A stretch of 62,884 nucleotides of DNA, filler included. It is 4 parts of 4 records of this genome, joined end to end, with 100 filler letters (N's around TTAATTAATTAA, not from the genome) between each part and the next. Parts side by side here need not be neighbours in the genome. Positions count along the whole stretch, not along the records: positions 29,966 to 57,519 come from DRR723986_5823; 3 more parts are not named here. One strand, given 5' to 3'. Both the position numbers and the translations under genes were made by a program. The notes beneath the pieces are model-generated. The model worked only from the letters and a program-made list of their open reading frames with translations. It searched no databases and was not told where the DNA came from. Positions 29,966 to 57,519 of the stretch are shown piece by piece. How positions within the stretch are numbered: position 1 is the stretch's first letter; each line of letters opens with the position of its first letter.

Positions 29966-29981
29966 CTTAGGGCTCGACCCG
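29966..29981. repeat. Truncated copy of the CGGGTCGAGCCC-TTA-GGGCTCGACCCG palindrome
   Basis: CTTAGGGCTCGACCCG is identical to 35308-35323; the contig starts within it. Confidence 0.75.
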
Positions 29982-30357
29982 GGTGTCTTGAAGACCAAAA
30001 TCCCGAGATTTTCAGATAACAACTATCCAATAAATCCACAAATCCCCAGACTCTGATTCTTCCAGTCAAAATTCAGTCTCCGCAACCCACAGACTGCAGC
30101 CTCCGGTCGCAAGCAATTGAGACTCCACACCGTGAGACTAGAGTCGAAAGCCGGCAACTGCGCCTCGATCAAACGCGCTGCCGCCAGTTTGAACGACCCA
30201 ATCTTACCCATACCGTTCCTTTTTCCCCGCCACCAATTCATCACAACATTCCAACTCAAAGTCGCGTCAATACTGGATCTGGAACCCGCCATCTTATCAC
30301 AAATTGGCATTCGTCAAATTGCCGATATACACAATAATTGAAAAATTGTAGCTACGC

Positions 30358-30415
30358 GACTAACAAGAAGAAAAAGCAAGCCACACAAATGCAATGCAGG
30401 TGGGGCGAAGCGCGC
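30358..30415 (-). repeat. Dispersed hairpin repeat, degenerate copy A
   Basis: Minus strand CCTGCATTGCATTTGTGTGGCTTGCTTTTTCTTCTTGTTAGTC matches the copy at 42454. Confidence 0.6.
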
Positions 30416-30587
30416 TTGTTGTAGCCTGACAAAACGCCCCGACAAAAACGAATTGCGCAAACGTATTGATGGACGGACAGCAAACCCTCCGGGACTTCAA
30501 TTTCCTGCAGACAAGCACCGTAGCATTGCTGCCAATAGCCTCTACATTTTTGCAGCGCATTCAACTCTACCCTGCTGGACCTACGCA

Positions 30588-33500
30588 ATGAGTCAATCAT
30601 CACAAGCATCACATTTTAAACGACAGCTGGTAAGTGTCCTGCTTTTGTGTTTAACATGTAGTGCCAATGTAATTGCCGCCCAAATAGAATGGAAAAATGC
30701 CGTTGATGGTAACTGGAGTGATGCCGCCAATTGGACCGGTGGTGCCGTGCCGGGAATCAATGACGACGTCTGCATTAGCACTGGTGGAACCTACGCCGTG
30801 TTTATGGATCAGGATGTTACAATTCGTTCGCTTAAAGTTGGCGGGACAACTGGCAGTCAATGCCTGCTGATCACCAGCCAGACGCTGAGCCTGAGCCTGA
30901 AGTCTACAATCGCTTCGCTTGGAAAAATTGAACTGAATGCCGCGACGCTCTCAGGCAATGGTGCGCTCGAAAATCGCGGCAATCTATTGCTGCGCAGCGC
31001 AACTGTAACACAAGACTTGTTTAATTTTTCAACGCTCCAGGTGCGTAACGATGCCGCGCCCGCCACAGTTGTTAACGGCGAAATTGTTAACGCTACAGCC
31101 GCAAGTCTGGATATTTTGGGTGGGACGGCATTTGACACAAAACTCAAGGTGCATCAGGCACAGAATTTTGGCAAAATCACGCTCGGCAGTTCAGGCGGTA
31201 AGAATGCACTTCTGCAGTACTTTGGCGGAGCCGGACAGCTGTTTGTTAATGCGACTTCTGCAACGATTTGCACCGTGACAGGCGCGGGCGGCCTGCGCTG
31301 CATTGAAGGTGGCGTCGATAGCCGCTTCCGGAACTTTGGTCATATAGAGATTTGCACGACCTCCAAAATCCGCTATGACGGTGAGTTTGAAAACAAAGGG
31401 CTGATTGAATGCAGCAAGTCCAGCGTAACCATTGAAAGCCTGCGGCCGATTAACACATTTGGGAATGCAGGCGACATTCGCGTTAAAGACAGCAGCGAAA
31501 TCAACTTTGACAATGGACACTTTGAACCGCGCAGCGGGGGACGCCTGCTCGGTTTGGGCAAACTTAACTTTCAGGATATCACCGTCCGCAACGGCGAATT
31601 TCTGCTGAATGACCCTTCCGCCTGTTTTGCGGGTTTAACACGCTTTGAAAACTCATGCTCAATTAACAACTCCGGTCGGATGCAGTTTAGAGGCTCATGT
31701 ACGCTGGACGCGGCAATTGTTAACCAAAAAGATGCTTTGATGCATTTTAGAACCGTAGCGGGAACACCGGCGGCATTTGCGTTTACCGGTGACATTGAAA
31801 ACTTTGGTGATATGCAGTGGGGTAGTGACGATCAATCAGATTCGGCGTCGAGTACCAGTAGTTACAACAATGTCCATTTTGAAAACAGCGGAAAATTGAT
31901 CCTGTGTGGTCCCGATAACTCGGCTGCGTCGACACGCACCTTTATCATGACAAATGACTGCATATTTGAAAATACGGGGACGGTAGACTGCTGCCGACAA
32001 ACGATATTTAACTGTTTTGCCTTTGATTCGCGCTTTAACAGCGAAGATGGAATGTTAATGTCGAGCGGTGCAGGTAGTCAAACCACCATTCTTTCCTCAC
32101 TGCAGTTTATGCCGGCCTCCAAAACTATCACCCTTGGTGATATGCAAATAGCCGCAGACGCCAGCATTGCGGTTGTCCAGACCACGCCGGGAGCGCTGGT
32201 AGAAGTTCCGTCGCCCACTACAGAATGCCACAATCTGGGGCAGCTGTTTCTACAGAACTGCGCGCTGAATGTTAAGCCGGAGGGCTACTTTCTGGATGAC
32301 GGGGAAGTCCTGATATCGTCCTGCACAATTGAAAGCGCTATTGAATTCCGCGAATGCAACAGCAGGTTACATAACATCTTCACACGCCCGGGAGCTGATC
32401 TGACCTTCGGTGGCCCGGACAATACAATTAGCGGCACAAACTGTCTGGAGGCTGAGTTTAAGATTCTGGCCGAGTCCAACATGACCATGGGCCCGGATAA
32501 TAACGGTCTGGGCTCGTTTACGCAGTTTAAGGCCGGAGGTCTAAATCTGGGTTGTATTCAGGTTGATGCGCCCGGCAAAAAAACGATTGTTGAAATCCTG
32601 GATGGGCTGTTCGTGAACCAGGGCAAATTTGCAACCAAGTTAGCCAGCGACCTGGAGTTGATAATCAAAGAGTCCGGCAAGTTTAAGAATGATTCGACCG
32701 GCAAGATTGACTTTGGAAGTGCCGGTGGCTCCAGTACCACGGTCAACATGTGCGACAACGCCCTGTTCCAAAACTTGGGCGCCCTCGAAACTCATCGCGT
32801 GGCCGCAAGTGATACTCTGCCAAAGTTTGCCCTAAAAGACAGCGCATTCATATTTAACACTGGCGAAATGGTGATTGTACCGCCATTTAGTGACGACATT
32901 GCAATTGTCCAGGATGTATATGTTGACATACTGCTTATGAACATCAGCAACCTTCTGAACATCGGTAGACTGGAATTTATCGCACAATCAAATGCACTTT
33001 TAAAGGACAAGTATCAGACCGGCAGAAAAACCAGTCTGAAGCTGTTGGACCATGCAAAATTCACCAACTTCGGAGACGTAACAATTGAAGTCCCCCTGGC
33101 CAGTGACTCTGTAAAAGTAAATTTTGGTCCGACGCTCTCCCTGATTGACCTGCGCGACAATGCCTGCCTGCGCAATACCGGCAATATTGAAGTTAAACCG
33201 CAGGAACCACCTTCCGACAGTTTGATCGATACTTATGTGATGATGATTGAACCCGAGACAAATATCATTGGTCTGGAGGATGAGTCCGTGTTTGCCAACG
33301 AAGGGACTGTTAACATGGATCTGTTGACCATTCCGACTGCGGTTCGGCTAGACTTTACGGCCAGTTTTTCTAACAGTGATGAAGTTCGCATCCAGCGCCT
33401 GCTGCATAATGAGCCGACTGTGGTTCTCAAGGATGGCACAACGTTTAACAATAGCGGCGACTTTTTTGTGGAAGAATTCACAAGTGAACTCGATTTCCTG

Positions 33501-34934
33501 GTTCCTTTTGGCGCAAGGGCCTTAACGCCATCGGCTGCGGTGAGCATATTTGACAGTGCCGCGTTTAACAACTCCGGTTTAACGCGCTTAACTGTGCGTC
33601 GCGACTCGCTGCCGGTTATTATGATGCGCGATTCAGCCAGGTGGCGCGGGCCGGGTTCGCTCGAGATATTTGACTCAGAAGATGAAGATGCTCCCGCTGG
33701 TCTTTGGGACGAGTCACCTGCAATTTTGATGCAGGATGCGACCGAATTGACAGTTGAAAAAGGCGGGGCCGTGTTTTATCATGGATTTGCGGATTTGATT
33801 CTGGCAGGCCCTTCCCTGACGCAAACAAAATGCGAAGTTAATTTCTTGGGTCTGCTGAATTGTAATGTTCCAGCCGGTGAGGTGTTAAGGTCTAAGTTCC
33901 TTGACAGCTGCGGGTTAAAGATTAACGAACTCGTGGTGCGCGGTGGCGGTCGCAAAGAATTTGATATTGCACCTGGCGCCGCCTTGACCTATCTGGAGAC
34001 TTCACAGATCGACGTTGATAAGTCGGTCATTGATGTTAAAGGTGTTGATGAAGTTGAACTTTCAAAGTCGGCATTTCTGCGTGGTGAGGGCCGGCATAAA
34101 CTGGCGGATCGTTTAGTTAATCGCGGTGGCTGCGGGCCGGGGCGCTCACCTGGGATATTAACAATCGGCGGTGATTACACGCACGGCACCACGTCTACGC
34201 TGGAGCTTGAGATCGGTGGCACGAGCGCGGGGCTGGGCTACGATCAGTTGGTTGTAAACGGCGAGTTTACCCTTGGCGGAAACTTGAACATTAGTTCCAC
34301 CAACAACTTTGTGCCGGCAGATGCAGATGAGTTTGTGATAATGCGCTACGAGTCTGTTACAGGCGCGTTCAGCACAGTTGCGGGCTTGTTAAATATTGGT
34401 TACAGCTATACGCTGCAGTTTAATGCGACTGAGGCGATTTTAACCGCAAGTGTGGCCAACGCAATTGTGTTTAATATTGACGTATTCTTCCAAGGCTATT
34501 GGACAGGCTCGGCGCATCGGCGTACGCCATTCATGTTGGAGTTACGGGAGGGACCGCAGCTTTCGACTTCTGCACTTGTTGCCAGGTCCGCGGCTTTGCA
34601 CAGCACGGGTGCAACGACGCAGTTTAACATGGCGGGGGTTACGGATGGCGATTATTGGTTAATTGTGCGGCATGGTGGGCATTTGCCCCTGGCCAGTAAT
34701 GTTCGCGTTTCAGTTAGTTCCGGCAGTACTGTTAACTACGACTTCAGCGATACGGCGAATTTGACCGGCGGCGCAGCGTATGTCCGTCCAGTGATTGTTA
34801 ACGGTGTGGCGCGGCAGGCGGCAATGGCGGGTGAGTTAAATGCTGACAATTCAATTAGCGCCAATGATTTTATTCATCAGTTTATTCCCAACTTTGGCGT
34901 GTTTAATCCGGGGCAGGTTCCGGCACTGGATTGA
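30588..34934 (+). CDS. Large secreted beta-helix (autotransporter-passenger-like) protein with dockerin-like C-terminal domain
   Basis: Start reassigned to MSQSSQ (signal peptide ending VIAA-Q); GNWSDAANWTGGAVPG cap; many FxNxG rungs; PGRSPGILTIGGDY...YDQLVV; C-terminal VFFQGY...YWLIVRHGGH...GELNADNSISAND. Confidence 0.8.
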   Translation: MSQSSQASHFKRQLVSVLLLCLTCSANVIAAQIEWKNAVDGNWSDAANWTGGAVPGINDDVCISTGGTYAVFMDQDVTIRSLKVGGTTGSQCLLITSQTLSLSLKSTIASLGKIELNAATLSGNGALENRGNLLLRSATVTQDLFNFSTLQVRNDAAPATVVNGEIVNATAASLDILGGTAFDTKLKVHQAQNFGKITLGSSGGKNALLQYFGGAGQLFVNATSATICTVTGAGGLRCIEGGVDSRFRNFGHIEICTTSKIRYDGEFENKGLIECSKSSVTIESLRPINTFGNAGDIRVKDSSEINFDNGHFEPRSGGRLLGLGKLNFQDITVRNGEFLLNDPSACFAGLTRFENSCSINNSGRMQFRGSCTLDAAIVNQKDALMHFRTVAGTPAAFAFTGDIENFGDMQWGSDDQSDSASSTSSYNNVHFENSGKLILCGPDNSAASTRTFIMTNDCIFENTGTVDCCRQTIFNCFAFDSRFNSEDGMLMSSGAGSQTTILSSLQFMPASKTITLGDMQIAADASIAVVQTTPGALVEVPSPTTECHNLGQLFLQNCALNVKPEGYFLDDGEVLISSCTIESAIEFRECNSRLHNIFTRPGADLTFGGPDNTISGTNCLEAEFKILAESNMTMGPDNNGLGSFTQFKAGGLNLGCIQVDAPGKKTIVEILDGLFVNQGKFATKLASDLELIIKESGKFKNDSTGKIDFGSAGGSSTTVNMCDNALFQNLGALETHRVAASDTLPKFALKDSAFIFNTGEMVIVPPFSDDIAIVQDVYVDILLMNISNLLNIGRLEFIAQSNALLKDKYQTGRKTSLKLLDHAKFTNFGDVTIEVPLASDSVKVNFGPTLSLIDLRDNACLRNTGNIEVKPQEPPSDSLIDTYVMMIEPETNIIGLEDESVFANEGTVNMDLLTIPTAVRLDFTASFSNSDEVRIQRLLHNEPTVVLKDGTTFNNSGDFFVEEFTSELDFLVPFGARALTPSAAVSIFDSAAFNNSGLTRLTVRRDSLPVIMMRDSARWRGPGSLEIFDSEDEDAPAGLWDESPAILMQDATELTVEKGGAVFYHGFADLILAGPSLTQTKCEVNFLGLLNCNVPAGEVLRSKFLDSCGLKINELVVRGGGRKEFDIAPGAALTYLETSQIDVDKSVIDVKGVDEVELSKSAFLRGEGRHKLADRLVNRGGCGPGRSPGILTIGGDYTHGTTSTLELEIGGTSAGLGYDQLVVNGEFTLGGNLNISSTNNFVPADADEFVIMRYESVTGAFSTVAGLLNIGYSYTLQFNATEAILTASVANAIVFNIDVFFQGYWTGSAHRRTPFMLELREGPQLSTSALVARSAALHSTGATTQFNMAGVTDGDYWLIVRHGGHLPLASNVRVSVSSGSTVNYDFSDTANLTGGAAYVRPVIVNGVARQAAMAGELNADNSISANDFIHQFIPNFGVFNPGQVPALD

Positions 34935-34991
34935 TTGCCGAATTGACGCTTGGAGTTTAACAAATTTGTGGCCTCGATTTCTGAGGCGCTT

Positions 34992-35039
34992 TGAGGCCTG
35001 CACAGGTTTGGCCTCAGGCTTCTTGATTTTCTTGTTAGT
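34992..35039 (+). repeat. Dispersed hairpin repeat, variant copy B (terminator position)
   Basis: TGAGGCC/GGCCTCA stem followed by GGCTTCTTGATTTTCTTGTTAGT tail, about 60 nt after the stop. Confidence 0.5.
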
Positions 35040-35296
35040 TGTTGATTCATCAGCTGCAAGTCTCTGAGTCAAAATGCTTTTGACTCAAGACATGTGTGGA
35101 GTCGTAAAAATAAGAAACGACTTGCAGTCTGTTATGCCGAGTTTTGAGCTTGTGCGCCGAATTGGATTCAAATATTGAGAAAAAAATGATTCTGTCGGGA
35201 AACAAGCTAAAAAGCGTCAGCGCTACTGAATTGTTGATGAGCGGGCTGAAAATCGTGTTAAAGGCTTGAAAATTTTAGAATCTAATTTTTTGAATA

Positions 35297-35323
35297 CGGG
35301 TCGAGCCCTTAGGGCTCGACCCG
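35297..35323. repeat. Perfect 12-bp-arm palindrome (REP-like)
   Basis: CGGGTCGAGCCC-TTA-GGGCTCGACCCG; second partial copy at 29966. Confidence 0.8.
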
Positions 35324-35596
35324 CTGCATTTTTTGAAAATTTCGCCCTCTTGCCCTCAGAATAATCCACTATTTCCCCATCTATGTTACAGGCCTCTAAG
35401 ACCCCGCTCCTCCGCACTCACCGGCCCCAGACAGCATAACTCCAGCCGCTGAGCATCCGCCGGCAAAGTCTGCGGCTGGTCCAAAAACTCCAAGTCTCAA
35501 GCCTCTGAGACCCGGCGGCGGGCTGCCGCCTCACAGTCTTTTGAACTCAAAGACAAAAAGACTTGAGACTCAAAGACCTGGGGCTTTTGACCCGCT

Positions 35597-35648
35597 GACT
35601 AACAAGAGCTCAAACAAGGAAGCTGACCGGGAGGCAGCGAACCGCTCA
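35597..35648 (-). repeat. Dispersed hairpin repeat, degenerate copy C
   Basis: Minus strand GCTG-cctcccggt-CAGC-TTCCTTGTTTGAGCTCTTGTTAGTC. Confidence 0.5.
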
Positions 35649-35764
35649 GAAAATCAGTCACCGGTCAATTCCAGCCATAAGACCAATGCTACGATCATTC
35701 AAAGATTAGTACCGTTATTGCAATATGCCTGTGCATTTTGAAGATTACAGCCACAGAGTTCGCG

Positions 35765-35808
35765 CAATCAGTCGCCAATAATTCGCCAATCAGTCGCCGA
35801 TAATTCGC
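35765..35808. repeat. 4 x 11-bp (2 x 22-bp) tandem repeat
   Basis: CAATCAGTCGC CAATAATTCGC CAATCAGTCGC CGATAATTCGC. Confidence 0.8.
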
Positions 35809-36099
35809 GACAGAATTGCACCTGAAGCGTTCCTTGATGTGTTGCATCCCTGAGAAAACAGCTTTTGCGCGATTCCAGCCTGCCAATAGCGCAGCTGAAA
35901 CGGGCGCAGCGTGTGACCAACATCTTGCATGGAGAGCTGTAACTAAGCCACAGGGACCGGATTATTTCGTGAAGAGAAGGCCAGATCCGGCAGAAACCTA
36001 AAATCGCCCTAGGTGCTTGATTGGCGTTGATTTTGGGTGCATCTTCCGGTTTGGTGTACGAAAAGGATATCCTTCCAATTCCAAGCAGAAGGACCACTA

Positions 36100-37716
36100 A
36101 TGGATCGCCGTGATTTTTTACGGATGACAACGAGCGGCAGTAGCTTCCGCGCCAGCTCGGGACGTGATTTTGATGACAGGCAAGGGGTGACGGCCGGGCT
36201 GGAAGAACAGCCTGGGACGCTTTCGCGCGCAGATGCGCTGCACCTCCTGCGCCGCTTTACCTTTGGGCCTACACATGAATTGCTGGCTCAGATAGAGGGT
36301 AAAACGGTGGGTGAAGCCGTGGACCTTTTGCTGGGGCCGGTGTATGATCCCGACACAAATCCCGAGACAATGCCGGAAGCGCCGGGAGCCTGGGTGGATG
36401 ATTCGGACGAAGATCCGAACGAAGCCGACATCATTACGCGCAACCAGATTGAGGGCCGCTGGGAGAATCAGCACGGCAACCTGCGCCAGTGGTGGGTCAA
36501 TCAAATGCAGGTGGAAGAGCTGCCCGCGCGCGAGAAAATGACGCTGTTCTGGAGCGGCCACTTTACAACGGAATTCACTTTTGACGATTCGTATTCGGTG
36601 CCGCAGTTGCTGTACCGCCAGAATCAAATGCTGCGGCGTTCGCGGCTGGGGGATCTGAAGCGCTTTGTTGAAGACGTCACGCTCGACGGCGCGATGTTGG
36701 CCTATCTGGGCGGCGAACTTAACATTAAGGGCAACCCGAACGAAAATTATGCACGTGAGCTGCTTGAGCTTTACACTACCGGCCTGGGCTGGTATTCGGA
36801 AGCTGAAGTGCAGGCGGCGGCGCGCGTGTTAACCGGCTGGAAAGCATCCAAGTTCAACTCGGCACCGGCGCCGCGTGGCCAGTTTAACTCCTATTTTATT
36901 CCAGGTGACCACGATATTTCGGCCAAGGAGATGCTCGGTGGAATAATTGCGGCACGTGATGAAGACTTTAACACTGAAGTGCTGGTACGCCGCGACGAGA
37001 TTCGCGGTTTAATAAATCTGATCTTTGCGCTGGAACGCAATGACGGCGAACAACACGCCGTAGGACGTTTCATAGGTGAGAAACTTTACCACTACTTCAT
37101 TTACAGTAAACCGCTGGCTCCGCCTGAAGACTTTATGTTGCAGCTGCAGCAGCGATTTATTGACAGCCAATTTGACATGCGTACCGTAATGGGTGCCATC
37201 CTGCGCAGTGCGCATTTTTATGAGCCGGTTAATCGCGGTGTGCAAATTAAAACACCTGCGGAATATATGATCGGTTTTGCGCGCCAGATGGGTGTGGCGA
37301 CCGTCGATGCCGCCGCGGCAATGGCGAACGTGGAGCAGGATCTGTTCGATCCGCGTGACGTGTCCGGCTGGGATGGCTACCGCGCCTGGATCAGCACTAA
37401 AACCTATCCGCTGCGGGCGGCTTTTGCACGCGAATTGATTCGCGGCATTCCCGACTTTGTGCTGGCGGAATGGGCCAAGAAGTTTACAGACTTTGAGGAT
37501 GCGGACTTGTTAACAAGTGCAGTTGAAGAGTTCCTGCTGCCGCGCCCGGTATCTCCCGAGCGCCACGCCGCTTACGTTGATGCGCTGTTAACCGGCGATA
37601 CCAAAGACTACGAATGGCCTGAAATTATTCTGGATGCCGACCCAGCCAGCGCAGCGCTGCGCCTGCGTTCGCTCCTGACCGCAATTTCGCGCGCGCCCGA
37701 CTTCCACTTGTGTTAA
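36100..37716 (+). CDS. DUF1800 family protein
   Basis: HLLRRFTFGP, REKMTLFWSGHF, AMLAYL, PNENYARELLELYTTG, YSEAEVQAAARVLTGW, KTPAE; start MDRRDFLRM with AGAAGGA RBS. Confidence 0.92.
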   Translation: MDRRDFLRMTTSGSSFRASSGRDFDDRQGVTAGLEEQPGTLSRADALHLLRRFTFGPTHELLAQIEGKTVGEAVDLLLGPVYDPDTNPETMPEAPGAWVDDSDEDPNEADIITRNQIEGRWENQHGNLRQWWVNQMQVEELPAREKMTLFWSGHFTTEFTFDDSYSVPQLLYRQNQMLRRSRLGDLKRFVEDVTLDGAMLAYLGGELNIKGNPNENYARELLELYTTGLGWYSEAEVQAAARVLTGWKASKFNSAPAPRGQFNSYFIPGDHDISAKEMLGGIIAARDEDFNTEVLVRRDEIRGLINLIFALERNDGEQHAVGRFIGEKLYHYFIYSKPLAPPEDFMLQLQQRFIDSQFDMRTVMGAILRSAHFYEPVNRGVQIKTPAEYMIGFARQMGVATVDAAAAMANVEQDLFDPRDVSGWDGYRAWISTKTYPLRAAFARELIRGIPDFVLAEWAKKFTDFEDADLLTSAVEEFLLPRPVSPERHAAYVDALLTGDTKDYEWPEIILDADPASAALRLRSLLTAISRAPDFHLC

Positions 37717-37756
37717 TTGTGCAAATTCCCAGAAAAGTAGAATTTCAGGATTTCCC

Positions 37757-39382
37757 ATGAAGAGACGCGATTTCCTTAAATATACGGCCGCAGCGTCGGC
37801 CGTCGCGGCCAGTTCGTCACAGGCATTTAATCTGGGCGGTTTACCGGTCTTTGCGCAGTCGCCTCCGATGCTGGGCGGCAATGTGCTTAACAGCGATAAG
37901 ATACTGATTATCGTGCAGCTCTTTGGCGGTAATGATGCGCTTAACACAATTGTGCCGGTTGATGATGACAACTATCACAATCTGCGCCCAACCATTCGTG
38001 TGCGCAAGACCGAAGATGCGCCTGCACAGATTGCGGGTAGCGACGCCTACTTCCATCCGGCACTGGTAGACAGTTATAAGGGCGGGTTCCTGCAGCTGCA
38101 CGACCAGGGGCGCCTGGCCGTGATTCAAGGGATTGGCTATGAGAGTCCCAACCTCTCACACTTCCGGTCTACCGACATTTGGTTAAGCGGTTATAATCCG
38201 CGTGATGAAGACATTTTCAGCGACCCACAGGTGCGTCTGCTCGACGGCTGGATTGGTCGCTTTTTTGCGCACTCGATTCCGACGTTTCCGAATGACCTGC
38301 CGAATTATCCACTCTCTATTCAGATTGGCGGTCAGCTTTCGCTGATGCTGCAGAGTGACGCCGGCGACGCCGGGATTGCAATCAGTGATCCCGAACGCTT
38401 CTTTAACCAGGACGGCGGCCTATCGGCCGATGAAGTGCCACTGCCCGGCGAAGACGCCTATGAGAAAGAATACAACTACATCCTGCAGGTAGCGCAGGCT
38501 TCCGATAAGTATAAGGAAGAAGTTAAAAACGCCTACGAGTCCGGAACTACAACCGTTGACTACGGCGGCGGTTTAGCGCAGCAGTTTAAATCCGTTGCGC
38601 GCATGATCAGCGGGGGACTGGGCACGAAAGTCTACATGCTGCGCATGGGTGGTTTTGACAACCACGTTAACCAGGCCTTTGAAGGCCAGGAAGGTTTTCA
38701 CCCAACGCTCCTGCGCCAGCTCAGCATGGGCATCAGCCAGTTTATGGACGACGCCGTGAATCAGGGGTTTGCGGATCGCGTTGTGGGCATGACAGTCACC
38801 GAGTTTGGCCGGCGTCCGCGTGAGAACGGCAGCCGCGGTACGGACCACGGAACATCATCGGTCCAGTTTGTATTTGGCGAAGGTGTGCGCGCCGGCCTGT
38901 ACGGCGACAATCCCGATCTGGGCCGCTTCCTGGAAGACAGCGACCGCAACTCAAACCTGGAGTATCAGAACGACTACCGGCGCGTCTACGCTGAAATTCT
39001 GGAAGTCCTGTTTGGCGCTGAAAAGACAGACGTTGAGTCGATCCTCGGTAAACGTTTTGTGCACATGGGCATTCTGGATCCGGCGATATCTTCGGTGAAC
39101 AGTCCATTTGTCAACCAGCCTGGCGGCGGTGGAAAGCTGACGATCAGCCCCAACCCTTGCACCAGCGGTAATGTTAATGTGCAGTTTGAACTCAAACGCC
39201 CCACGAAAGTCGATTTAAGCCTCTATTCCATACAGGGTGTGCATTCGTTAACTGTACAGCGTACAATTTTTGGACGCGGCATTCATTCGGTAAACTTTAA
39301 CGCTCCCAAAAGTGGTGTTTGGCTCTGCGTCCTCGAGGCTGAAGGACGTCAGATCGCTGAGAAGCTGGTGGTTCTGCGTTAA
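37757..39382 (+). CDS. DUF1501 family protein with Tat signal and T9SS-type C-terminal domain
   Basis: MKRRDFLK signal; LFGGNDALN, PNLSHFRS, GGFDNH, TEFGR, GTDHG; C-terminal ISPNP...LYSIQG...SGVWLC...EKLVVLR. Confidence 0.92.
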   Translation: MKRRDFLKYTAAASAVAASSSQAFNLGGLPVFAQSPPMLGGNVLNSDKILIIVQLFGGNDALNTIVPVDDDNYHNLRPTIRVRKTEDAPAQIAGSDAYFHPALVDSYKGGFLQLHDQGRLAVIQGIGYESPNLSHFRSTDIWLSGYNPRDEDIFSDPQVRLLDGWIGRFFAHSIPTFPNDLPNYPLSIQIGGQLSLMLQSDAGDAGIAISDPERFFNQDGGLSADEVPLPGEDAYEKEYNYILQVAQASDKYKEEVKNAYESGTTTVDYGGGLAQQFKSVARMISGGLGTKVYMLRMGGFDNHVNQAFEGQEGFHPTLLRQLSMGISQFMDDAVNQGFADRVVGMTVTEFGRRPRENGSRGTDHGTSSVQFVFGEGVRAGLYGDNPDLGRFLEDSDRNSNLEYQNDYRRVYAEILEVLFGAEKTDVESILGKRFVHMGILDPAISSVNSPFVNQPGGGGKLTISPNPCTSGNVNVQFELKRPTKVDLSLYSIQGVHSLTVQRTIFGRGIHSVNFNAPKSGVWLCVLEAEGRQIAEKLVVLR

Positions 39383-49684: not shown

Positions 49685-49901
49685 ACATCAGCATGGTTAA
49701 GTTAAACATATTTGCATTTGGCAGGCACATGCCTGGGCTTGGCTGCCGTTCAGTTCTATTCATAGTGCGATAATCTCCGAACATATAGCGTTTGCCGTTC
49801 AATTCCAAATAATTGGGCAGCCGTGCACTATTCAGTTCTGACCACTTTTTTTTCGTGATGTTATCTGTTTGGGGCTATGTCGTTGTTTCCGGAGCTGATT
49901 T

Positions 49902-49954
49902 GATTGCAGCGCCCGCTATGACATCGGGCTTGCTTTTTGAGGTTTTTGTTTGTC
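49902..49954 (+). repeat. Dispersed hairpin repeat, copy G
   Basis: GATTGCAGCGCCCG-CTATGACAT-CGGGCTTGCTTTTTGAGGTTTTTGTTTGTC (compensatory C-G pair). Confidence 0.85.
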
Positions 49955-49994
49955 TTTGAGTTAACAGCTGGTGGCTCATGTTCCTGCGTTTGTC

Positions 49995-50780
49995 TTATTC
50001 CTGGGTCGATAAATATTTGTTGGTGTCTTGTGTTAATCTGTCAATAATTAGTCGTTGTGTTTCAGTCTTGGCGGTTCCCTCCATATCTTCCGAAATTTTT
50101 AAAGCTAGGCTAATGTTTTGTGTAATGACTAGTTTTTGATGGTATTGAGACATCTTTAGAATGGTTCGGTTGTAGAGGTAGAAAAAGACGGCTGCAATAA
50201 ACTCACTTATTATGCCTGCTCCTGTTGTGACATAAGCTGGCTCAGTTATCTCCAGGAACATCATTACCACCCCAATAATTATGATGATCAAGCCAACGAT
50301 AGATGCGAATGATGCAAGTCTGAAGCTTTTGTCTGCCTGTTCCTGTGTTTGGAGGTAGTACTGATCAAGATATTTGAAGTTGATTTGAACCAGTTTTGTA
50401 AAGAAATTCTTTTCTATGTTATTCTGTAAGTCTTCCGCACCCAATTGAACAAGTTGAAGCTCTATCTCTCTGAGCTTTCTGGACAGTGACATTCTCAGAT
50501 AGCTAACAAAATAGCCATATAATAAGGGGCCTGTGAGTGCTCCCATTAACGCGTATGGTATCATGCTAAATAACCAGGTAGAGACAACCTCCATTGAAAA
50601 ATTTAGAGCAAGTGACACATATAAGGACACGAATACGGCCCCAACAATGGTCGAGACTATCCATCCAACAGTTTTGAAGCTATAGTTGATGAGCCTTTGC
50701 TGAAGTTGTTCTTTTCTTTTTATCAATACTGCTAAAGACGTCTTGTCGATTTTACTTTTGGAGGTATTGTCTTCTGCCAT
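49995..50780 (-). CDS. 4-TM membrane protein with TRADD-N-associated 2TM-like domain; AT-rich
   Basis: YYLQTQEQADKSF-TM-AGIISEFIAAVFFYLYNRT...YHQKL pattern recalled for the CyanoTRADDas_TM domain; markedly lower GC than neighbours. Confidence 0.7.
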   Translation of the reverse strand: MAEDNTSKSKIDKTSLAVLIKRKEQLQQRLINYSFKTVGWIVSTIVGAVFVSLYVSLALNFSMEVVSTWLFSMIPYALMGALTGPLLYGYFVSYLRMSLSRKLREIELQLVQLGAEDLQNNIEKNFFTKLVQINFKYLDQYYLQTQEQADKSFRLASFASIVGLIIIIIGVVMMFLEITEPAYVTTGAGIISEFIAAVFFYLYNRTILKMSQYHQKLVITQNISLALKISEDMEGTAKTETQRLIIDRLTQDTNKYLSTQE

Positions 50781-51181: not shown

Positions 51182-54100
51182 CTATTTGTTGTCCGTCACC
51201 AGCAGCGGCAGAGTCGTTGATCCGGAATCAGTCATGATGCGGATGTAGTACATACCTGCGGCAACGGATTGCCCACCGGAATTCAGGCGTTGCCACTCCA
51301 GATTCTGCGTGGTCCCAGCCGTTGGACCACTGTGCAACTGGCGCACCTTGCGGCCCATCGCATCCACGATGTCAACCGTCAGGTTCTGCGCCTGCCGCAG
51401 TGTAATGTCAATGCGACTATGCAGCAAACTCGGGTTTGGATAAACCCGCGCTGTGAGTACGGCCGGGTCGGAAGATCCTGCGGGAACTCTAGTGACCACA
51501 ACTGACGATCCCGGTCCCGACAAACTGAGGTTGTCGATCGCGATACCGTCATTCGGCAGCGCCTCATCATCGGTCTGGCGGAAATCAATCACAAAGTTCG
51601 GTGTCAGGTTTAAGCCATTCGTCGAAGCCAGCTGAATAACATTTAGCGAAACACTCAGCCAGCTCGTTGTTGCCGTCGTTAAACTGTAAACCTTAACAAA
51701 GTTGGCACCGGCATCGTCGGAGAAAAATACTCCGTCATTTGGATTGGCTTCGTCCTGTAAACTCTTCCATTCAAAAGTCAGTGTCGACTTCGTAACGCCG
51801 CTGTAGTCAACATACAGATATGCGTCGTTAGTTACCGACACATTGTCCGTACCGCCGAGCACCAAATGTGAAGCGCCGGTATATGGCGCATAGGCACTTG
51901 TGGTTTGCAGATAACTTTGTGAAACGCTCGGATACCATTGCCATTCCGGATCGATACCACTTTCAAATCCGGTTGAGTACGGTGGTGTTGCCACGCTAAC
52001 ACCAGGGACGACCGAGATATCATCGAACAGGAAACCGTCACCCGGCGCCGCGTTAAAACCACCGTGGCGGAAACGCACCACAAAAGTTCCACTTAAGGTT
52101 AAGCCGTTTGCCACCGCCAGCTTATCAACATCAAGCGTGAAACGCTGCCAGTAAGTTGTATTCGAATGCAGCGCCCAGACCTGCGTAAATGTCAGGCCGC
52201 CATCCGCTGAGAACCAAATCGCGTCATTCGGATCATCACCATCGGGAAATTCCTTCCACCAGAATGTTAAGTCCACATTCGTATGGCCGCTGAGATCAAG
52301 GTGCAGATCCGCGTCGATGCTGCTCACGCCCGGTGTTGTTGGGCTGGCATGCACCAGCAGCTGCTGCGCGCCGCTATGCGGTCCATACGTTGCATCGATA
52401 TCGGCTCTGGCATAACCGTCGGAAGAATATATTCGCCAGAACTGATCCAGCCCAGCTTCAAATCCCGTGGTATACGGCAGGGAAGCATAGGACTTGCCCA
52501 CGCTGACCGATATGTTGTCAAACGCAGCGCCAACGGCCGGCAGCGGCATCATTGTACTTTGTTCAAAGCGGATCACATACATCGGCGTAAATGGCACGCC
52601 ATTCATGATCGCCAGTTGGTCAAGGTCAAGCGTAACCGTTTGCCATTGGCCGTCATTACCAGCAAGCGAATACACATTGATGAATGTATTGCCTCCGTCG
52701 GCCGATAAATAAATCGCATCGGTTGGGAATGGCGTGTTAAAAATCGACTTCCAGTCAAAGGTCAGGTCAACGTCAGTTAAACCAGCCAGATTCAGATAGA
52801 GTTGTGCGGCACAAACACTCGGCGCTCCAGGCGAATTACCCTGCATCGTTAAGTGGAATGCGCCTGTGCTTGGTCCGTGCAGCGGTTCAACCTGGGCTAT
52901 GCCATTCGAGTTAACACAATAGGTGCGCCAAAACGGATCGAGCATGCCGGTTTCAAAGCCTGTGTTGTACGGCACCGGCGCATAATTTTTGCCGGCTGTC
53001 ACCGAAATGTCATCGAATGCAAAGCCATCCATGCCGATAATTTCATCGTCGAACTGCGTAAATCGAACGACAAAAGTATTTGTCAACGGCATGCCAAACT
53101 GAGCTGCCAGCTGATCAACGTCAAGTGTGATCGGTTGCCAGATTCCGGCATTCCCCGTAAGAGCAAAGACCTGTGTGAAAGTCATCCCACCATTATTGGA
53201 AAACCAGATGCCGTCGACCGCGTGCATTTCATCACCCAGAGACTTCCACCAAAACGAAAGATCCACGTCCGTCTGGCCACTCAGGTTGAGGCATAAATCG
53301 GCATCGTTCTGCACAGCCTGACCGTTAAGTGTGGACGACATTGTTAAGTGCTGCAGACCGCTGCGCGGACCATTCGCGGTCTCAACCACATTCCGTCCAA
53401 AGGCGTTCGAACTTTGTGTTTGCCAAAATGGATCCAGCCCAGTTTCAAATCCGGTCGCATACGGCAGATTGGCGTAATTCGATATACCGCTGACGATCAG
53501 TGAATAGGTTTGCTGCGCAGTTAACAGTGAACCTTTGTGGCTAACCGTGACTGTATACGTTCCTGCCGGCGGATTAGCCACGAGCACCTGCTCGACATTG
53601 TCACGGTTGTTATCTCCTGTCGTCGCTGCCAAAGCCGGCGACGATGGATTTAAAATCCAGGGTTGATAGACAACACCTGTGCCGTTGTTGGTCAGGCGCA
53701 GGTCAAGGTCGTGAACCAGCATCAGGTTCGTCGGGTTAACCTGGTTTGATGCGGGTGTTCCGGCAAGATCGGACCAGGCGATGGTGGCTTTCAGGGGGCG
53801 TGTGCCGTCAACCTGAATCTGGAAGGTGTTAACAGCACTGTTAAACAAGCTGCTTTCAACGATGTTGTGCAAGGGGCCGTCATCGGCAATAATCCGCGCC
53901 GCGCGATGTGTATTCATCAGCCCGTAACCGAACTGGTAATCCGGGCCTGGAGCGGTTCCGGCATCGTCGGCAGCATGAATTGCCAATGCCTTGAGCGTTT
54001 GTGCACGCATCGACTGACCGCCATTCTGGTTCTGATACATTTCCTGCAGCAGAAGCAGTGAACCCGAAACATTCGGTGCGGCCTGTGAGGTGCCGTTGTA

Positions 54101-55360
54101 ATTGCCGTAACACTCAAAACATTGATTGGTAGTGCCTGGGAAAAAATTCAGCGCTGAGTTAACTTCAAAACCATTGCCGACGATGTCGGGTTTAATCCGT
54201 CCGTCATCGGTTGGCCCCCATGAACTGAACTGTGTCATCACAATCGATGCCGGAGCTACTACACAACTCGGGGCAGTCGGGTCGGCACAAGCTGGTTTTA
54301 ACGGAATGTCATTTACAGCGCCAACTGTTAACACATTTTTTGCCACCGCGCCGTTCATCAGGCAGTCATAACCATTCGGCGCGCCATCCTGATTGCGCGG
54401 CACCGTCGAAAGTGTAAACCCACCTCCGGAGACAATCCAGTACTGTGTCCCCGGTGTAAGCGGTCCCGTGTCGTCGCGGTCATTCCCGGCCGAACGCACG
54501 ATCAGCGAAAATGGTGCCAGGTTTGCAGTCTGGTCAAGCTGCTGACTATATGAGTCGTAAAATCCGAAGTTAAAATCCGTTGTGGTACTAACGGTCCAAT
54601 CTCCAAACCAGACCCAGCGGTTGTCATTCAAAAAGTTAAAATCCCATCCGCCGATTACATCCCAGGAATGGTTGGCTACCAGCATCGGTCCAATGAATGC
54701 CGATGCCATTTCACTGATGTCATTGTTCCAGTCGTAGGCATCGATATAACAGACTGTGGCCATGCCACGCCTGCCCAGCAGACCAACCTGCCCAATCGTG
54801 CCCGCAACGTGTGTAGCGTGGTCTGTCACACCCGCAGCAGGCATGTCGCGTTGGATAACTCGATTGCGGCCGTTAAACCAGCCGAACTGGGGGTGCCCAA
54901 CGTACACGCCACCGTCATCCCAAATACCGGCCAGCAGTCCCGGAGCTATCAGGTCGTAACCCGATAGTCCGCCGACCTGGACTGCATCCGTGGAAGTCGT
55001 TGTTGCCGCAGCAGTATTATGTGAGCCGCGATAGCGTGGCAGGCCCGCGTCCGTAAACCCATAAAATGTAGCGCCTTTGCCGTCCTTGCCGCGCACGCTC
55101 AGTGGAATGTTGTTGGCTCGCGCTTGTTCCGCAGCCTGCGGATACCAGGCCTTAAACTCAATATCTGTTTGTTTTGCATGCTCCTGTAGTGCTTCAATAT
55201 CCGTATTTGATCTAAGCCATTTGCTAACCAATGCCGTGTCGATTGGACGTTGAATATCCGGTATGATATCCCGTTGTAGTTGCTGAGAAAAAACTGTGGG
55301 GGCTGTTGTTCCCATAACTGCCAGCCATGCGATCACCAATAAAGTTCGTGCGAACGTCAT
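51182..55360 (-). CDS. S8 subtilisin-like serine protease with four tandem jelly-roll/MAM-like repeats and FlgD/T9SS-type C-terminus
   Basis: Start MTFART; catalytic D (IWDDGG), H (HATHVAG), N (SAGND), S (GTSQAAP); four PYxTGFExG repeats; VYPNP...DAMGRKV...GMYYIRI. Confidence 0.93.
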   Translation of the reverse strand: MTFARTLLVIAWLAVMGTTAPTVFSQQLQRDIIPDIQRPIDTALVSKWLRSNTDIEALQEHAKQTDIEFKAWYPQAAEQARANNIPLSVRGKDGKGATFYGFTDAGLPRYRGSHNTAAATTTSTDAVQVGGLSGYDLIAPGLLAGIWDDGGVYVGHPQFGWFNGRNRVIQRDMPAAGVTDHATHVAGTIGQVGLLGRRGMATVCYIDAYDWNNDISEMASAFIGPMLVANHSWDVIGGWDFNFLNDNRWVWFGDWTVSTTTDFNFGFYDSYSQQLDQTANLAPFSLIVRSAGNDRDDTGPLTPGTQYWIVSGGGFTLSTVPRNQDGAPNGYDCLMNGAVAKNVLTVGAVNDIPLKPACADPTAPSCVVAPASIVMTQFSSWGPTDDGRIKPDIVGNGFEVNSALNFFPGTTNQCFECYGNYNGTSQAAPNVSGSLLLLQEMYQNQNGGQSMRAQTLKALAIHAADDAGTAPGPDYQFGYGLMNTHRAARIIADDGPLHNIVESSLFNSAVNTFQIQVDGTRPLKATIAWSDLAGTPASNQVNPTNLMLVHDLDLRLTNNGTGVVYQPWILNPSSPALAATTGDNNRDNVEQVLVANPPAGTYTVTVSHKGSLLTAQQTYSLIVSGISNYANLPYATGFETGLDPFWQTQSSNAFGRNVVETANGPRSGLQHLTMSSTLNGQAVQNDADLCLNLSGQTDVDLSFWWKSLGDEMHAVDGIWFSNNGGMTFTQVFALTGNAGIWQPITLDVDQLAAQFGMPLTNTFVVRFTQFDDEIIGMDGFAFDDISVTAGKNYAPVPYNTGFETGMLDPFWRTYCVNSNGIAQVEPLHGPSTGAFHLTMQGNSPGAPSVCAAQLYLNLAGLTDVDLTFDWKSIFNTPFPTDAIYLSADGGNTFINVYSLAGNDGQWQTVTLDLDQLAIMNGVPFTPMYVIRFEQSTMMPLPAVGAAFDNISVSVGKSYASLPYTTGFEAGLDQFWRIYSSDGYARADIDATYGPHSGAQQLLVHASPTTPGVSSIDADLHLDLSGHTNVDLTFWWKEFPDGDDPNDAIWFSADGGLTFTQVWALHSNTTYWQRFTLDVDKLAVANGLTLSGTFVVRFRHGGFNAAPGDGFLFDDISVVPGVSVATPPYSTGFESGIDPEWQWYPSVSQSYLQTTSAYAPYTGASHLVLGGTDNVSVTNDAYLYVDYSGVTKSTLTFEWKSLQDEANPNDGVFFSDDAGANFVKVYSLTTATTSWLSVSLNVIQLASTNGLNLTPNFVIDFRQTDDEALPNDGIAIDNLSLSGPGSSVVVTRVPAGSSDPAVLTARVYPNPSLLHSRIDITLRQAQNLTVDIVDAMGRKVRQLHSGPTAGTTQNLEWQRLNSGGQSVAAGMYYIRIMTDSGSTTLPLLVTDNK

Positions 55361-55781
55361 ATGTAATCTTCCTGTGGAATGTACATGATTAATACTGCCA
55401 GGCAATTCCAGAGCCATTCCAGGCAAATAGTTGAAGTGCACGATTTAACTATTCGTTTAAGCTCTCGGATCGAAAGCCTGGAACATACTCCACCCATTCG
55501 CCGGTCGTATTAAGGGGGACGGGCGTGACTTGTAGGGATGAATTGTCGACTTGGTGGCTGTCCGCAGTCCGGGCAGTGTTGGACCTTGGGCAGCCGTGAT
55601 TTTTAATAAAGTGATATGCGCTACGTTAACGCGGCCGTTTCAAACGCCAATATTGTTAAGTCGCAGGCGTAACGGGAAACCAAAATTTTGCTTGAATGGA
55701 AATTGATTCCTGGCTTTTTAATACTATTTAGGCCTATTTTTCACCAAATTCGCTGTTTTTACCACGAGCCGACTTGAAACG

Positions 55782-57350
55782 ATGAGAAGAAATTCACGCG
55801 ATCTATTTGAATTGATTTCGAAGTTATCCCCCGCCGAAAAACGTGCTATTTCCCGCGCAGCAGCTGCTTCGGGCGGAAACAAGCTCAGTAAATACGGGAT
55901 ATTGTTCGATGAAATTGCCGCGCTACGTGAGTACGACGAAGAGGCGGTTCAGCGCTGCGCACGCGCAAATGACATTCACGATTTACCGGGTTCCAAGCGT
56001 TATCTCTATAATTTAATTTTAGATCAGATGACCAAAAAATTCTGGAACAACACAACAACCGGCAAGTTGCGTACTATGATCGGCCATGCCGTTACGCTTT
56101 TTAACAGGGGATTATACACACAGACACGCACCATTCTTGACAAAGCTCGTGGGATCGCGGAGAAGTCCGAAAATTATGAGGCACTTCTCCAGATTGAAGC
56201 CAATGAAATTCGCCTGCGCATGCATACGGGCGTGCCGGCACTTACAGCCGATTCGGTCGACGAGGGATACAATGCGCTCCTGGGTGTACTTGATCGCTTT
56301 AAGGAGGCCACTCAATTGGAACATTTGTCCAGCCGAATGTATGTTATCGAAATGAATGCCGGGCGCATTCGTGATGCGGAGGTGGCGCAGGAAGCCGAAG
56401 AGTTAATGCAAAGTCAGGTTCTGCAGCGTTCGCGCGAAAGTGATTCACCAGTTATACAGTTCGAGTGGCATGATTTGCATTTACGCTATTACCGTTTGCA
56501 CTCCGACTGCCAACGCACTTATTATCATTCACTCGCCAAAATAAAAGTCCTCGAACAACATCCCGCATTTACCGATGACAACATGCACATTAGCGTATTT
56601 GCTTACGGACATTATTTGATGGAGTGTGTTAAATCTGGACGTTGGGCCGAGTTTGAGCACTATCGCAGTCAATTGCTTTCGTTTAAAACTCGTTATCCAG
56701 ACAAGTTAAGTACTATTAACGAAATCGAAACCTACATGGCCATTTGGGGGGCGATCCATCGCGCCAATCCCCGGGAGTTAACACTGTCCATTGACATAGC
56801 TGTGCAATGGTTAAAGAGTGACGATGACAGCCCTGAGCTTTCTTCGATTATTGGCGTATTATACGGCCTGGTCTACGGCGCAATTATGCTTGAGGACTAC
56901 GGTACGGCATTGGAATGGGCCGGTAAGGTGCTTAACCACCCGCAGTTGGATCAGGTTGGTGATGTGGAGGTATATGTACGTGTGATGAACCTCCTGATTC
57001 ACTACGAATTGGGCAACACCGAAGTACTGGAACATCAGCTACGCTCCACGTTCCGCTTCTTGCAACGGCGTGAACGCATGTACCAGGTTGAGTCGGCCTT
57101 ATTGCGTTTTATACGCCAGCTCCCACGTGCGATTGACTCCACAGTTTTACGTGAACACTTTGTTGATTTGCGCGCTGAACTCCACAGTTTAAGTAAGGAC
57201 CCAATGGAGCGCGCCGCTCTCGACTATTTTGCATTTGACAGTTGGTTAACAAGTAAAATCGAAGGCCGTAAGTTTATTGACGTCTGGCGCGAGGAACGTC
57301 ACGGAGTCTGGCAGGATATTCGCCGTGAGGAGCTTGTTGATGAGGGCTGA
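55782..57350 (+). CDS. Uncharacterised all-helical TPR-like protein (Bacteroidota LFxLIxxLSxxEKR family)
   Basis: DLFELISKLSPAEKR, KYGILFD, KRYLYNLIL, LFNRGLY, RVMNLLIHYELGN, YFAFDSWLTSKI. Confidence 0.8.
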   Translation: MRRNSRDLFELISKLSPAEKRAISRAAAASGGNKLSKYGILFDEIAALREYDEEAVQRCARANDIHDLPGSKRYLYNLILDQMTKKFWNNTTTGKLRTMIGHAVTLFNRGLYTQTRTILDKARGIAEKSENYEALLQIEANEIRLRMHTGVPALTADSVDEGYNALLGVLDRFKEATQLEHLSSRMYVIEMNAGRIRDAEVAQEAEELMQSQVLQRSRESDSPVIQFEWHDLHLRYYRLHSDCQRTYYHSLAKIKVLEQHPAFTDDNMHISVFAYGHYLMECVKSGRWAEFEHYRSQLLSFKTRYPDKLSTINEIETYMAIWGAIHRANPRELTLSIDIAVQWLKSDDDSPELSSIIGVLYGLVYGAIMLEDYGTALEWAGKVLNHPQLDQVGDVEVYVRVMNLLIHYELGNTEVLEHQLRSTFRFLQRRERMYQVESALLRFIRQLPRAIDSTVLREHFVDLRAELHSLSKDPMERAALDYFAFDSWLTSKIEGRKFIDVWREERHGVWQDIRREELVDEG

Positions 57351-57488
57351 CACTTTCTGATTCCGGTTTAATTGTGGCCGCTGAACCGGATGTTTAAAGG
57401 GGTTTTATCTGCATATATGTTAAGTCTTGGTTTTCTGGTCGTGGTATGTTGTTGCCAATTGTAATTGCAGGCTTGTCAAATTCGGGCA

Positions 57489-57519
57489 GATTGCAGCGCT
57501 TCTTCGCTATTCGCTTGCA
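57489..57519 (+). repeat. Dispersed hairpin repeat, truncated or variant copy H at contig end
   Basis: GATTGCAGCGC...GCTTGC; the contig ends here. Confidence 0.45.

Follow-up and report, generated by a model that had tools for sequence, protein, structure and literature searches.

Contig 3, at positions 29966–57519 of the analyzed window (a stretch of 62,884 nucleotides composed of four contigs), contains about twice the expected number of TTAA tetranucleotides, and this excess is real and far beyond chance. What is enriched is the half-site (T)GTTAA rather than the palindrome GTTAAC, the force behind it acts on DNA (or on any RNA) and not on translation, and in the two closest relatives found the bias sets in abruptly inside a gene. 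The reading preferred here, with a probability of about 0.5, is that of a soft, fast-turnover, lineage-restricted compositional drive at the DNA level, with continual replenishment of the word. A first-pass annotation of the same window had proposed a contig-wide excess of TTAA, mostly as GTTAA/TTAAC, and had likened it to HIP1 (GCGATCGC), the iterated palindrome of cyanobacteria; the excess was borne out, whereas the likeness to an iterated palindrome was not.

The four contigs of the window are joined by artificial linkers (N44-TTAATTAATTAA-N44) at 19871–19970, 29866–29965 and 57520–57619, which lie outside contig 3, so that its word counts are unaffected. They probably come from different genomes, since their GC contents differ (Table 1) and no two of them have related tetranucleotide signatures (r ≤ 0.35); the signature of contig 3 correlated with those of the other contigs at r ≤ 0.21 (r = 0.06–0.15 for contig 2, which probably belongs to another organism). 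The Markov observed-to-expected ratio (O/E) of TTAA was 1.03, 0.80 and 0.43 in contigs 1, 2 and 4, respectively, so that within the window the bias is confined to contig 3, and the other three contigs are uninformative on its genome. Relatives were sought by a scan of genome contigs with the DUF1800 protein of contig 3 as the query, which yielded 80 loci. The closest by identity of this protein were L001 (CAYULF010000023.1, 82%) and L002 (JAUIKM010000047.1, 81%), followed by a Kapaibacterium metagenome-assembled genome and an Ignavibacteria metagenome-assembled genome at 44–45%. The C-terminal sorting domain of the type IX secretion system (T9SS; TIGR04183) was above the cut-off in three proteins of contig 3. 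Because of these domains, and because the nearest named relatives are Kapaibacterium and Ignavibacteria, contig 3 is DNA of the FCB group (Bacteroidota/Ignavibacteriota), where the first-pass annotation had placed it. It should be noted that the title of the L001 record, "uncultured Hyphomicrobiales", looks wrong, given its 82% protein identity to a T9SS-bearing contig and the Kapaibacterium and Ignavibacteria affinity of the next relatives.

In total, contig 3 contains 203 TTAA, 97 GTTAA, 76 TTAAC and 32 GTTAAC, while TGTTAA is present 49 and 33 times on the two strands. The O/E of TTAA was 1.85 at zero order, 1.81 at first order and 1.37 under the maximal-order Markov model (z = 9.8), which ranked it first among the 256 tetranucleotides; it was also first in either half of the contig. 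The top pentanucleotides were GTTAA/TTAAC (Markov O/E 1.33, z = 6.3). All 25 of the 3-kb windows of contig 3 had a TTAA O/E of at least 1.09 (median 1.79); 1238 background windows of the same size, taken from 78 other loci and the three other contigs, gave a median of 0.52 and a 99th percentile of 1.36. Thus the term "contig-wide" holds, and the scope stops short of genome-wide. Table 1 of PMC3077040 gives for TTAA over 200 genomes a mean R of 0.84 with a variance of 0.10, which by simple arithmetic puts the value of 1.85 about three standard deviations above the mean; palindromes are, according to the available part of the same source, usually under-represented in bacterial genomes. The hand count that had first drawn attention to the motif was also reproduced: region 52021–54420 (GC 0.526) contains 19 TTAA, as compared with about 7.6 expected, along with 15 GTTAA, 7 TTAAC and 6 GTTAAC, and region 21001–23400 of contig 2 contains 4 TTAA and no GTTAA. 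Short-range periodicity or clustering of TTAA was considered and rejected, the gaps being near-geometric (coefficient of variation 1.16) with only the 3-nt coding phase visible. A longer repeat or mobile element as the carrier of the motif was likewise rejected: no repeat family contains it, and the flanks beyond ±3 are uninformative.

For the coding controls, 12 long open reading frames (ORFs) covering 23,535 of the 27,554 nt of contig 3 were used as the coding set, and the remaining 4,019 nt served as the non-coding set. The 173 TTAA of the coding set compare with 109.3 ± 7.1 when synonymous codons were permuted within genes (z = 8.9), with 100.6 when codon order was permuted (z = 8.3), and with 150.4 ± 4.5 when third bases were permuted within classes of codon family and next base (z = 5.1), the last null keeping all codon-junction dinucleotides and fixing frame 0 sites. 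The observed count was not reached in any of the 500 replicates of each. The excess therefore survives codon and codon-pair control, and the earlier proposal that the motif arises through synonymous choice stands; the codon examples cited for it, two in the DUF1800 gene and one in the S8 peptidase gene, are in frame as claimed (Table 1). Under the synonymous null, the top words were TTAA among 4-mers, TTAAC and GTTAA among 5-mers, and TTAACA (39 vs. 10.5), TGTTAA, CTTAAC and GTTAAC (27 vs. 8.6) among 6-mers. That the excess is a matter of chance or a compositional artefact (AT-rich patches, amino-acid content or mis-called ORFs) is practically negligible as an explanation: the small sample is all that speaks for it, whereas none of the synonymous, codon-order or junction-preserving shuffles reached the observed count, and TTAA ranks first in two independent related assemblies as well as in both halves of contig 3. 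Furthermore, AATT, TATA, ATAT, TTTA and TTAT were not enriched, either directly or under the same shuffles, and local AT-rich patches are therefore ruled out as the cause.

The excess was confined neither to one reading frame nor to a few proteins. In frame 0, 72 TTAA were observed with 36.3 expected (O/E 1.98), and in frame 1 the corresponding numbers were 99 and 72.1 (O/E 1.37), whereas a TTAA in frame 2 makes a TAA stop, and both frame 2 sites (n = 2) were genuine stop codons. In the per-gene synonymous test, 11 of the 12 genes had an excess (O/E 1.44–2.13). The codon choice behind it depends on context: leucine was encoded by TTA in 31.6% of cases before A (72 of 228) and in 5.9–13.6% before C, G or T, and among codons with T in the second position, the third base was T in 99 of 168 cases (59%) when AA followed, as compared with 41% elsewhere. 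Codons with another second base ended in T in 26% of cases before AA vs. 47% elsewhere. As described in the available part of PMC2585594, avoidance of nnUAnn is a near-universal codon-pair rule, the T|A junction being the most widely avoided type. Thus codons of contig 3 whose second base is not T obey this rule, whereas for TT|AA, and only for it, the preference is reversed; the reversal also occurs in the right part of L001 but not in its left part, nor in contigs 1 and 2.

Translational selection, either as a codon-pair preference or through off-frame TAA stops that would catch frameshifted ribosomes, is a very improbable source of the bias. Each coding TTAA does yield an off-frame TAA, and the raw excess is somewhat larger in genes (O/E 1.58 vs. 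1.3 intergenic); however, the other words giving off-frame stops are depleted (CTAA in frame 1, 0.48; ATAA in frame 1, 0.55; TTAG in frame 0, 0.39), both usable frames are enriched despite different codons and tRNAs, the flank preference is the same across frames, and the motif is found in hairpin loops as well as between genes, as described below. The intergenic and neighbor-word results thus largely refute this explanation. Depletion of the one-mismatch neighbors of TTAA, also suggested in the first-pass annotation, was found in part: summed over frames, CTAA (0.61) and TTAG (0.68), as well as ATAA (0.66), were depleted, whereas TCAA (0.99) and TTGA (1.19) were not.

In the non-coding set, 30 TTAA were found as compared with a mean of 23.1 under dinucleotide shuffling, a number reached in 20 of 300 shuffles, while the observed numbers of GTTAA (16 vs. 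4.9, 3.3-fold) and TGTTAA (11 vs. 1.6, 6.8-fold) were reached in none. Two long unannotated stretches are TTAA-poor (0 in 487 nt and 2 in 1,102 nt), and without them the comparison for TTAA becomes 28 vs. 16.6. The longer stretch (Table 1) had no Rfam match, as was the case for contig 3 as a whole (no structured RNA, 0 matches), and its longest ORF (120 amino acids, 35768–36130) had no Pfam match. In two of the three strongest terminator-like hairpins of contig 3, a GTTA loop lies within TGTTAA, in agreement with the earlier remark that the motif occupies both terminator loops. Since both usable frames, the intergenic words and the terminator loops are enriched, the force acts at the DNA level, and the frame independence proposed at the outset is upheld.

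It is possible, though rather unlikely, that selection acts on the density of the words because they serve as a signal in DNA, namely as sites for an orphan methyltransferase, a nucleoid protein, or an uptake- or Chi-like system; adenine methylation of TTAA/GTTAA might serve strand discrimination or regulation, and a nucleoid protein might mark accessory DNA. This is a weakened form of the idea put forward in the first-pass annotation. Frame independence, the intergenic enrichment and the presence of the motif in two of the three strongest terminator hairpins are consistent with it, and uptake sequences show a similar association with terminators. The bias runs contrary to the near-universal avoidance of nnUAnn (PMC2585594), and, within the available part of PMC8919816, TTAA-methylating enzymes and TTAA methylation are reported to exist in uncultured marine bacteria. 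However, synonymous opportunities are used only to the extent of 31.6% (leucine before A) and 59% (NTT before AA), and no DNA methyltransferase, Vsr-type or MutH-like gene was found among the ORFs scanned in the four contigs, which are a tiny sample; the earlier statement that the responsible genes are not in the window thus agrees with the scan. Defense-system context was limited in the PADLOC search to weak subtilase/IetS-like matches, to the S8 peptidase.

The sequence context of TTAA was graded. At zero order, the O/E was 4.7 for GTTAAC, 3.4 for GTTAAA/TTTAAC and 2.65 for CTTAAC/GTTAAG, and at the lower end it was 0.44 for CTTAAG, 0.43 for ATTAAT and 0.15 for ATTAAG/CTTAAT; all hexamers with G at −1 or C at +1 were enriched, and T was favored 5′ of GTTAA (TGTTAA, 6-fold at zero order). 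The two flanks act independently and the halves are not cooperative: GTTAAC reached 0.87 of the number predicted as GTTAA × TTAAC/TTAA under the maximal-order Markov model, and TGTTAACA, with 5 sites, about 0.67 of the prediction TGTTAAC × GTTAACA/GTTAAC (10 vs. approximately 15 expected). As both palindromes lie below the prediction from their halves, the half-site (T)GTTAA is the enriched unit. The information of the motif is limited to about 6–8 positions with graded flanks. Both features count against a selected signal, for which a motif of only 5–6 nt with graded flanks is a poor fit, and palindromic cooperativity would be expected if a dimeric methyltransferase or restriction-type reader recognized GTTAAC.

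HIP1 and the contig 3 word are both short and lineage-restricted, and both are over-represented as DNA words, in intergenic regions as well as in every usable frame (PMC5861425 and PMC4390886, in their available parts). According to the available part of PMC5861425, HIP1 is an 8-mer palindrome that is over-represented 15–300-fold, with sites that are conserved between genomes and a periodic distribution (10–90 kb). In contig 3, by comparison, the over-representation is 1.4–1.9-fold for TTAA and, at zero order, 4.7-fold for GTTAAC, the palindrome is not favored beyond its halves (0.87), and the sites are not conserved (2 of 27 and 8 of 33, in underpowered comparisons). Unlike HIP1, the bias is regional in L001 and L002, although it is uniform over the 27.5 kb of contig 3. 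A HIP1-like word would have cognate orphan methyltransferases recognizing its core; no DNA methyltransferase domain was seen among the ORFs scanned in the four contigs. The word of contig 3 is therefore a weak member of the over-represented genomic words and is not of the HIP1 type, as it differs in magnitude, palindromy and site conservation.

Among the 80 loci, a Markov TTAA excess like that of contig 3 with substantial counts was found only in L001 (1.5) and L002 (1.39), and in both of them in a part of the locus only. The values for L003 and L004 were 1.08 and 1.00, and other high ratios (3.75 in L039 and 1.54 in L023) rest on 14–22 two-strand counts in GC-rich DNA. Contig 3 and L001 share two syntenic blocks with 77% and 74% DNA identity. 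In the first, containing the DUF1800 and DUF1501 genes, whose orthologues are syntenic in contig 3, L001 and L002 (82–84% amino-acid identity), 27 TTAA were counted in contig 3 and 7 in each of L001 and L002, and only 2 of the 27 occupied the same position. In the second, containing the S8 peptidase gene and ORF522, the counts were 33 in contig 3 and 18 in L001, with 8 of the 33 shared. The average 4-mer was kept between contig 3 and L001 at 0.31–0.37. Among the 31 codon pairs of the second block that are TTAA-capable in both, TTAA was present in both at 5, in contig 3 only at 8, in L001 only at 4, and in neither at 14, giving an odds ratio of sharing of 2.2 (p = 0.43) vs. 3.4 for a third-position T control. 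The hairpins in L001 and L002 homologous to the terminator 3′ of the DUF1501 gene lack the loop motif. Thus, in these small samples, nothing suggests that individual TTAA sites are kept, and the comparison of the sequences is consistent with a fast turnover of sites, which speaks against selection of the word as a signal.

The most unexpected result was an abrupt mosaic switch in L001 and L002. In L001, the density of TTAA is 0.69 per kb over the first 13 kb (9 sites) and 6.62 per kb over the last 8.6 kb (57 sites); in L002, it rises from 0.69 (9 sites) to 5.21 per kb (18 sites). In both, the likelihood change point lies near position 13000, within the DUF1501 gene where its T9SS sorting domain begins. 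TTAA ranks first among the tetranucleotides in the right parts and 211th and 147th in the left parts. In the left part of L001, which encodes cytochrome c maturation proteins, IgGFc-binding-like proteins and DUF1800, TTA was used for 0 of 97 leucines before A, and there was no TT|AA preference, whereas the right part behaves like contig 3. When TTAA and its one-mismatch neighbors were removed, the two sides of L001 correlated at r = 0.48 and either side correlated with contig 3 at 0.41–0.52, the values for unrelated loci being mostly about 0.1–0.3; the two sides share a background signature and therefore differ mainly along the TTAA axis. The idea suggested by this boundary that T9SS sorting domains are themselves TTAA hot spots was rejected, as those of contig 3, with 6 TTAA in 684 nt, have a density of 8.8 per kb, compared with 7.3 per kb in the rest. 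The TTAA-poor part of L001 also carries two paralogous genes for IgGFc-binding-like proteins (14–1597 and 2294–4825), with about 70% DNA identity to each other (L001 1–6, 365 vs. 3236–3617), which flank a CcmB-like gene.

A regional distribution of this kind is explicable by a compartment-specific function, in favor of a selected signal, and it also raises a further explanation, that of a mobile or accessory gene pool, in which the signature would come from another donor lineage, islands of it would be scattered in related genomes, and the organism of contig 3 itself would generate nothing. The genes of contig 3 are of the accessory type (T9SS-secreted enzymes, four TIG paralogues, a TPR-LuxR regulator and proteins of unknown function), the TTAA-rich part of L001 and L002 begins where their mutual synteny breaks down, and TTAA is scarce in the cytochrome c maturation genes of the left part of L001. 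However, the syntenic DUF1800 and DUF1501 genes are TTAA-rich in contig 3 only, so that the change in bias, a gain or a loss, happened in situ; the rich and the poor segments have the same background signature once TTAA-related words are removed; no integrase, transposase or other mobility domain was found in the domain scans; and a megablast search of 29966–54900 against plasmid and phage collections, sensitive to near-identity only, gave no match in either. An origin of the signature in such a pool thus seems unlikely.

The preferred reading, a replenished compositional drive, may be set out as follows. TTAA is favored at all places where it can form and no stop codon results, most strongly as (T)GTTAA and with independent flanks. 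In genes, this takes the form of a context-dependent synonymous choice, with TTA for leucine mainly before A and NTT codons favored before AAN, and the same words are enriched between genes and in hairpin loops. The bias would be one component of the compositional genome signature of the lineage, in which a context-dependent mutation or repair bias would replenish the word in proportion to the residence time of the DNA in the lineage. Whereas the data show the bias itself, its DNA-level nature, its specificity for TT|AA, its turnover and its mosaic distribution, we infer that its upkeep is by replenishment rather than by selection on density or by conserved functional sites. Recent imports would lack the bias, candidates being the gene of GC 0.39 in contig 3 (Table 1) and the 13 kb of L001 and L002 in which TTAA is rare, and the abrupt boundaries in these two loci would be recombination joints resulting from import. 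The gene of GC 0.39 is the only one of the 12 without the excess; it appears compositionally foreign and is probably a recent acquisition.

Several observations weigh against this reading. A mutational drive intrinsic to the organism should be genome-wide, and the regional switch in L001 and L002 requires the added assumption of import or replacement; meanwhile, the genes of contig 3 are all of the accessory type, so that an accessory-specific and a genome-wide bias are inseparable. The exact seat of the motif in two of the three strongest terminator loops resembles placement more than drift, and the pattern of neighbor depletion, affecting CTAA, TTAG and ATAA but not TCAA and TTGA, matches no single mutational route. 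Contig 3 and L001 are 74% identical where TTAA is abundant and 77% identical where it is scarce, the rich part thus being no more similar than the poor one. The evidence consists of 27.5 kb of contig 3 and about 12 kb of L001 and L002, and the conservation tests, with 31 jointly capable sites in block B (the second block), are underpowered. The direction of substitution is not inferable because synonymous changes between contig 3 and L001 have nearly reached saturation (4-fold identity 0.40–0.47) and the next relatives are only 44–45% identical at the protein level.

A bolder proposal, which appears doubtful at present, is that a family-level FCB lineage has a dedicated TTAA/(T)GTTAA system that writes the word into any DNA in proportion to its residence time; conceivable forms include an orphan adenine methyltransferase with a link to repair and a nucleoid or uptake protein. 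If this were true, native and imported DNA would be sharply separable, even inside one gene, and HIP1 would have a weak counterpart outside cyanobacteria that is not palindromic.

Lineage-specific bias of the genome signature and amelioration of imported DNA form a concept that reportedly comes from Karlin, Lawrence and Ochman. Like a genome signature, the bias of contig 3 is lineage-specific, uniform on native DNA and absent from compositionally foreign segments, and it sets this contig apart from the others; unlike the usual signature, it is dominated by one word, which is a palindrome. Very-short-patch repair is the source of a bias toward CCWGG in E. coli, and as a possible model, a repair bias of this type could recreate a word without conserving its sites. 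However, an unusual polarity would be needed, since TTAA lacks cytosine; the inner transition neighbors TCAA and TTGA are not depleted, and no Vsr/Dcm-like gene is present in the window. Uptake signal sequences, DNA uptake sequences (USS/DUS) and Chi are words of 7–12 nt with a sharp consensus, Chi being strand-skewed; the uptake signals have a sharp consensus of 9–12 nt, occur about once per kb and often form inverted pairs as terminator stems. Similar to them, the word of contig 3 is short, frequent, lineage-specific and present in genes and terminators; it differs from USS/DUS in being soft, 5–6 nt long and located in terminator loops rather than stems, and from Chi in that TGTTAA is split only 49:33 between the strands of contig 3, irrespective of the direction of replication. 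The kind of phenomenon is already known, namely, a lineage-specific oligonucleotide bias, and the present case amounts to a peculiarity of composition that is well documented but does not constitute a new system. The literature searched contained no report of a bacterial lineage in which TTAA or GTTAAC is over-represented, and a term search of the available text of PMC4390886 (Elhai 2015) gave no mention of TTAA.

The interest of the bias lies in the reversal of a near-universal rule and in the unusually sharp boundaries. A lineage that does the opposite of the avoidance of palindromes and of T|A for one word points to an unidentified context-specific force on DNA, and the sharp on/off boundaries suggest that the word may mark residence time, distinguishing long-resident from imported DNA. 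The word could aid the binning of uncultured FCB lineages, and should a cognate methyltransferase or repair system come to light, it would offer a tractable small model for the origin of words like HIP1.

Table 1. Contigs of the window and features of contig 3 related to the TTAA excess.
Feature	Position	Strand	Remarks
Contig 1	1–19870		GC 0.37
Contig 2	19971–29865		GC 0.50
Contig 3, bearer of the TTAA excess	29966–57519		GC 0.50
Contig 4	57620–62884		GC 0.58
TTAA-poor stretch (1.1 kb) between the 1493-amino-acid ORF and DUF1800	34935–36036	.	2 TTAA; no convincing ORF
DUF1800 and DUF1501 genes	36037–39382	+	25 TTAA in contig 3; orthologues in L001 and L002 have nearly none before residue ~450 of DUF1501
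GTG TTA ACC	36826 (TGTTAAC start 36827)	+	in frame, ORF 36037–37716
GCG CTG TTA ACC, synonymous choice creating the motif	37582–37593	+	in frame, DUF1800 gene (ORF 36037–37716); underlying TGTTAAC start 37586
Intrinsic-terminator-like hairpin 3′ of the DUF1501 gene	39408–39439	+	14 pairs, T-run; GTTA loop within TGTTAAC
Terminator-like hairpin between the TPR-LuxR and multicopper-oxidase genes	47787–47818	-	14 pairs; loop TGTTAA (plus strand) from 47800
TRADD-N-associated 2-TM domain gene (PF20712)	49995–50780	-	GC 0.39; 3 TTAA vs. 6.2; only gene of 12 without excess
GGC TTA ACC TTA AGT	52091–52105	-	S8 peptidase gene; two TTAA inside 9 nt

Some further features of the window were noted. On the minus strand of contig 3, positions 39518–45441 contain four tandem paralogues of 399–429 amino acids, each with a weak IPT/TIG domain and otherwise uncharacterized; in L001, there are no TIG paralogues between the DUF1501 and S8 peptidase genes. 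An intergenic repeat of approximately 50–70 nt (...TTGCAGCGCCTG...CAGGCTTGCTTT.TGAGCTTCTTGTT.GTC...) was found at 42456–42520, 43981–44054, 44109–44160 (inverted), 49896–49967 and 35011–35053, upstream of or beside the TIG paralogues and the gene of GC 0.39, as well as in L002 at 13400–13445 and 15946–16003; it could be a shared promoter/operator or a small mobile element. Two non-coding tandem repeats, each in three overlapping two-unit copies, are located at 43841–43892 (13-nt unit, TATCAGTAAGAG.) and at 35765–35808 (11-nt unit, CAATCAGTCGC/CAATAATTCGC). The 1493-amino-acid protein encoded at 30453–34934 (plus strand) had no Pfam, NCBIfam or PADLOC match. The sole match of the 522-amino-acid protein encoded at 55782–57350 (plus strand) was to the BT2802-family model, below the cut-off (127 bits vs. 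550), and its gene adjoins that of the S8 peptidase in L001 too. In contig 1, the sequence at 124–4491 (minus strand) encodes a DNA polymerase III alpha subunit with a fused N-terminal RNase_T-type exonuclease domain.

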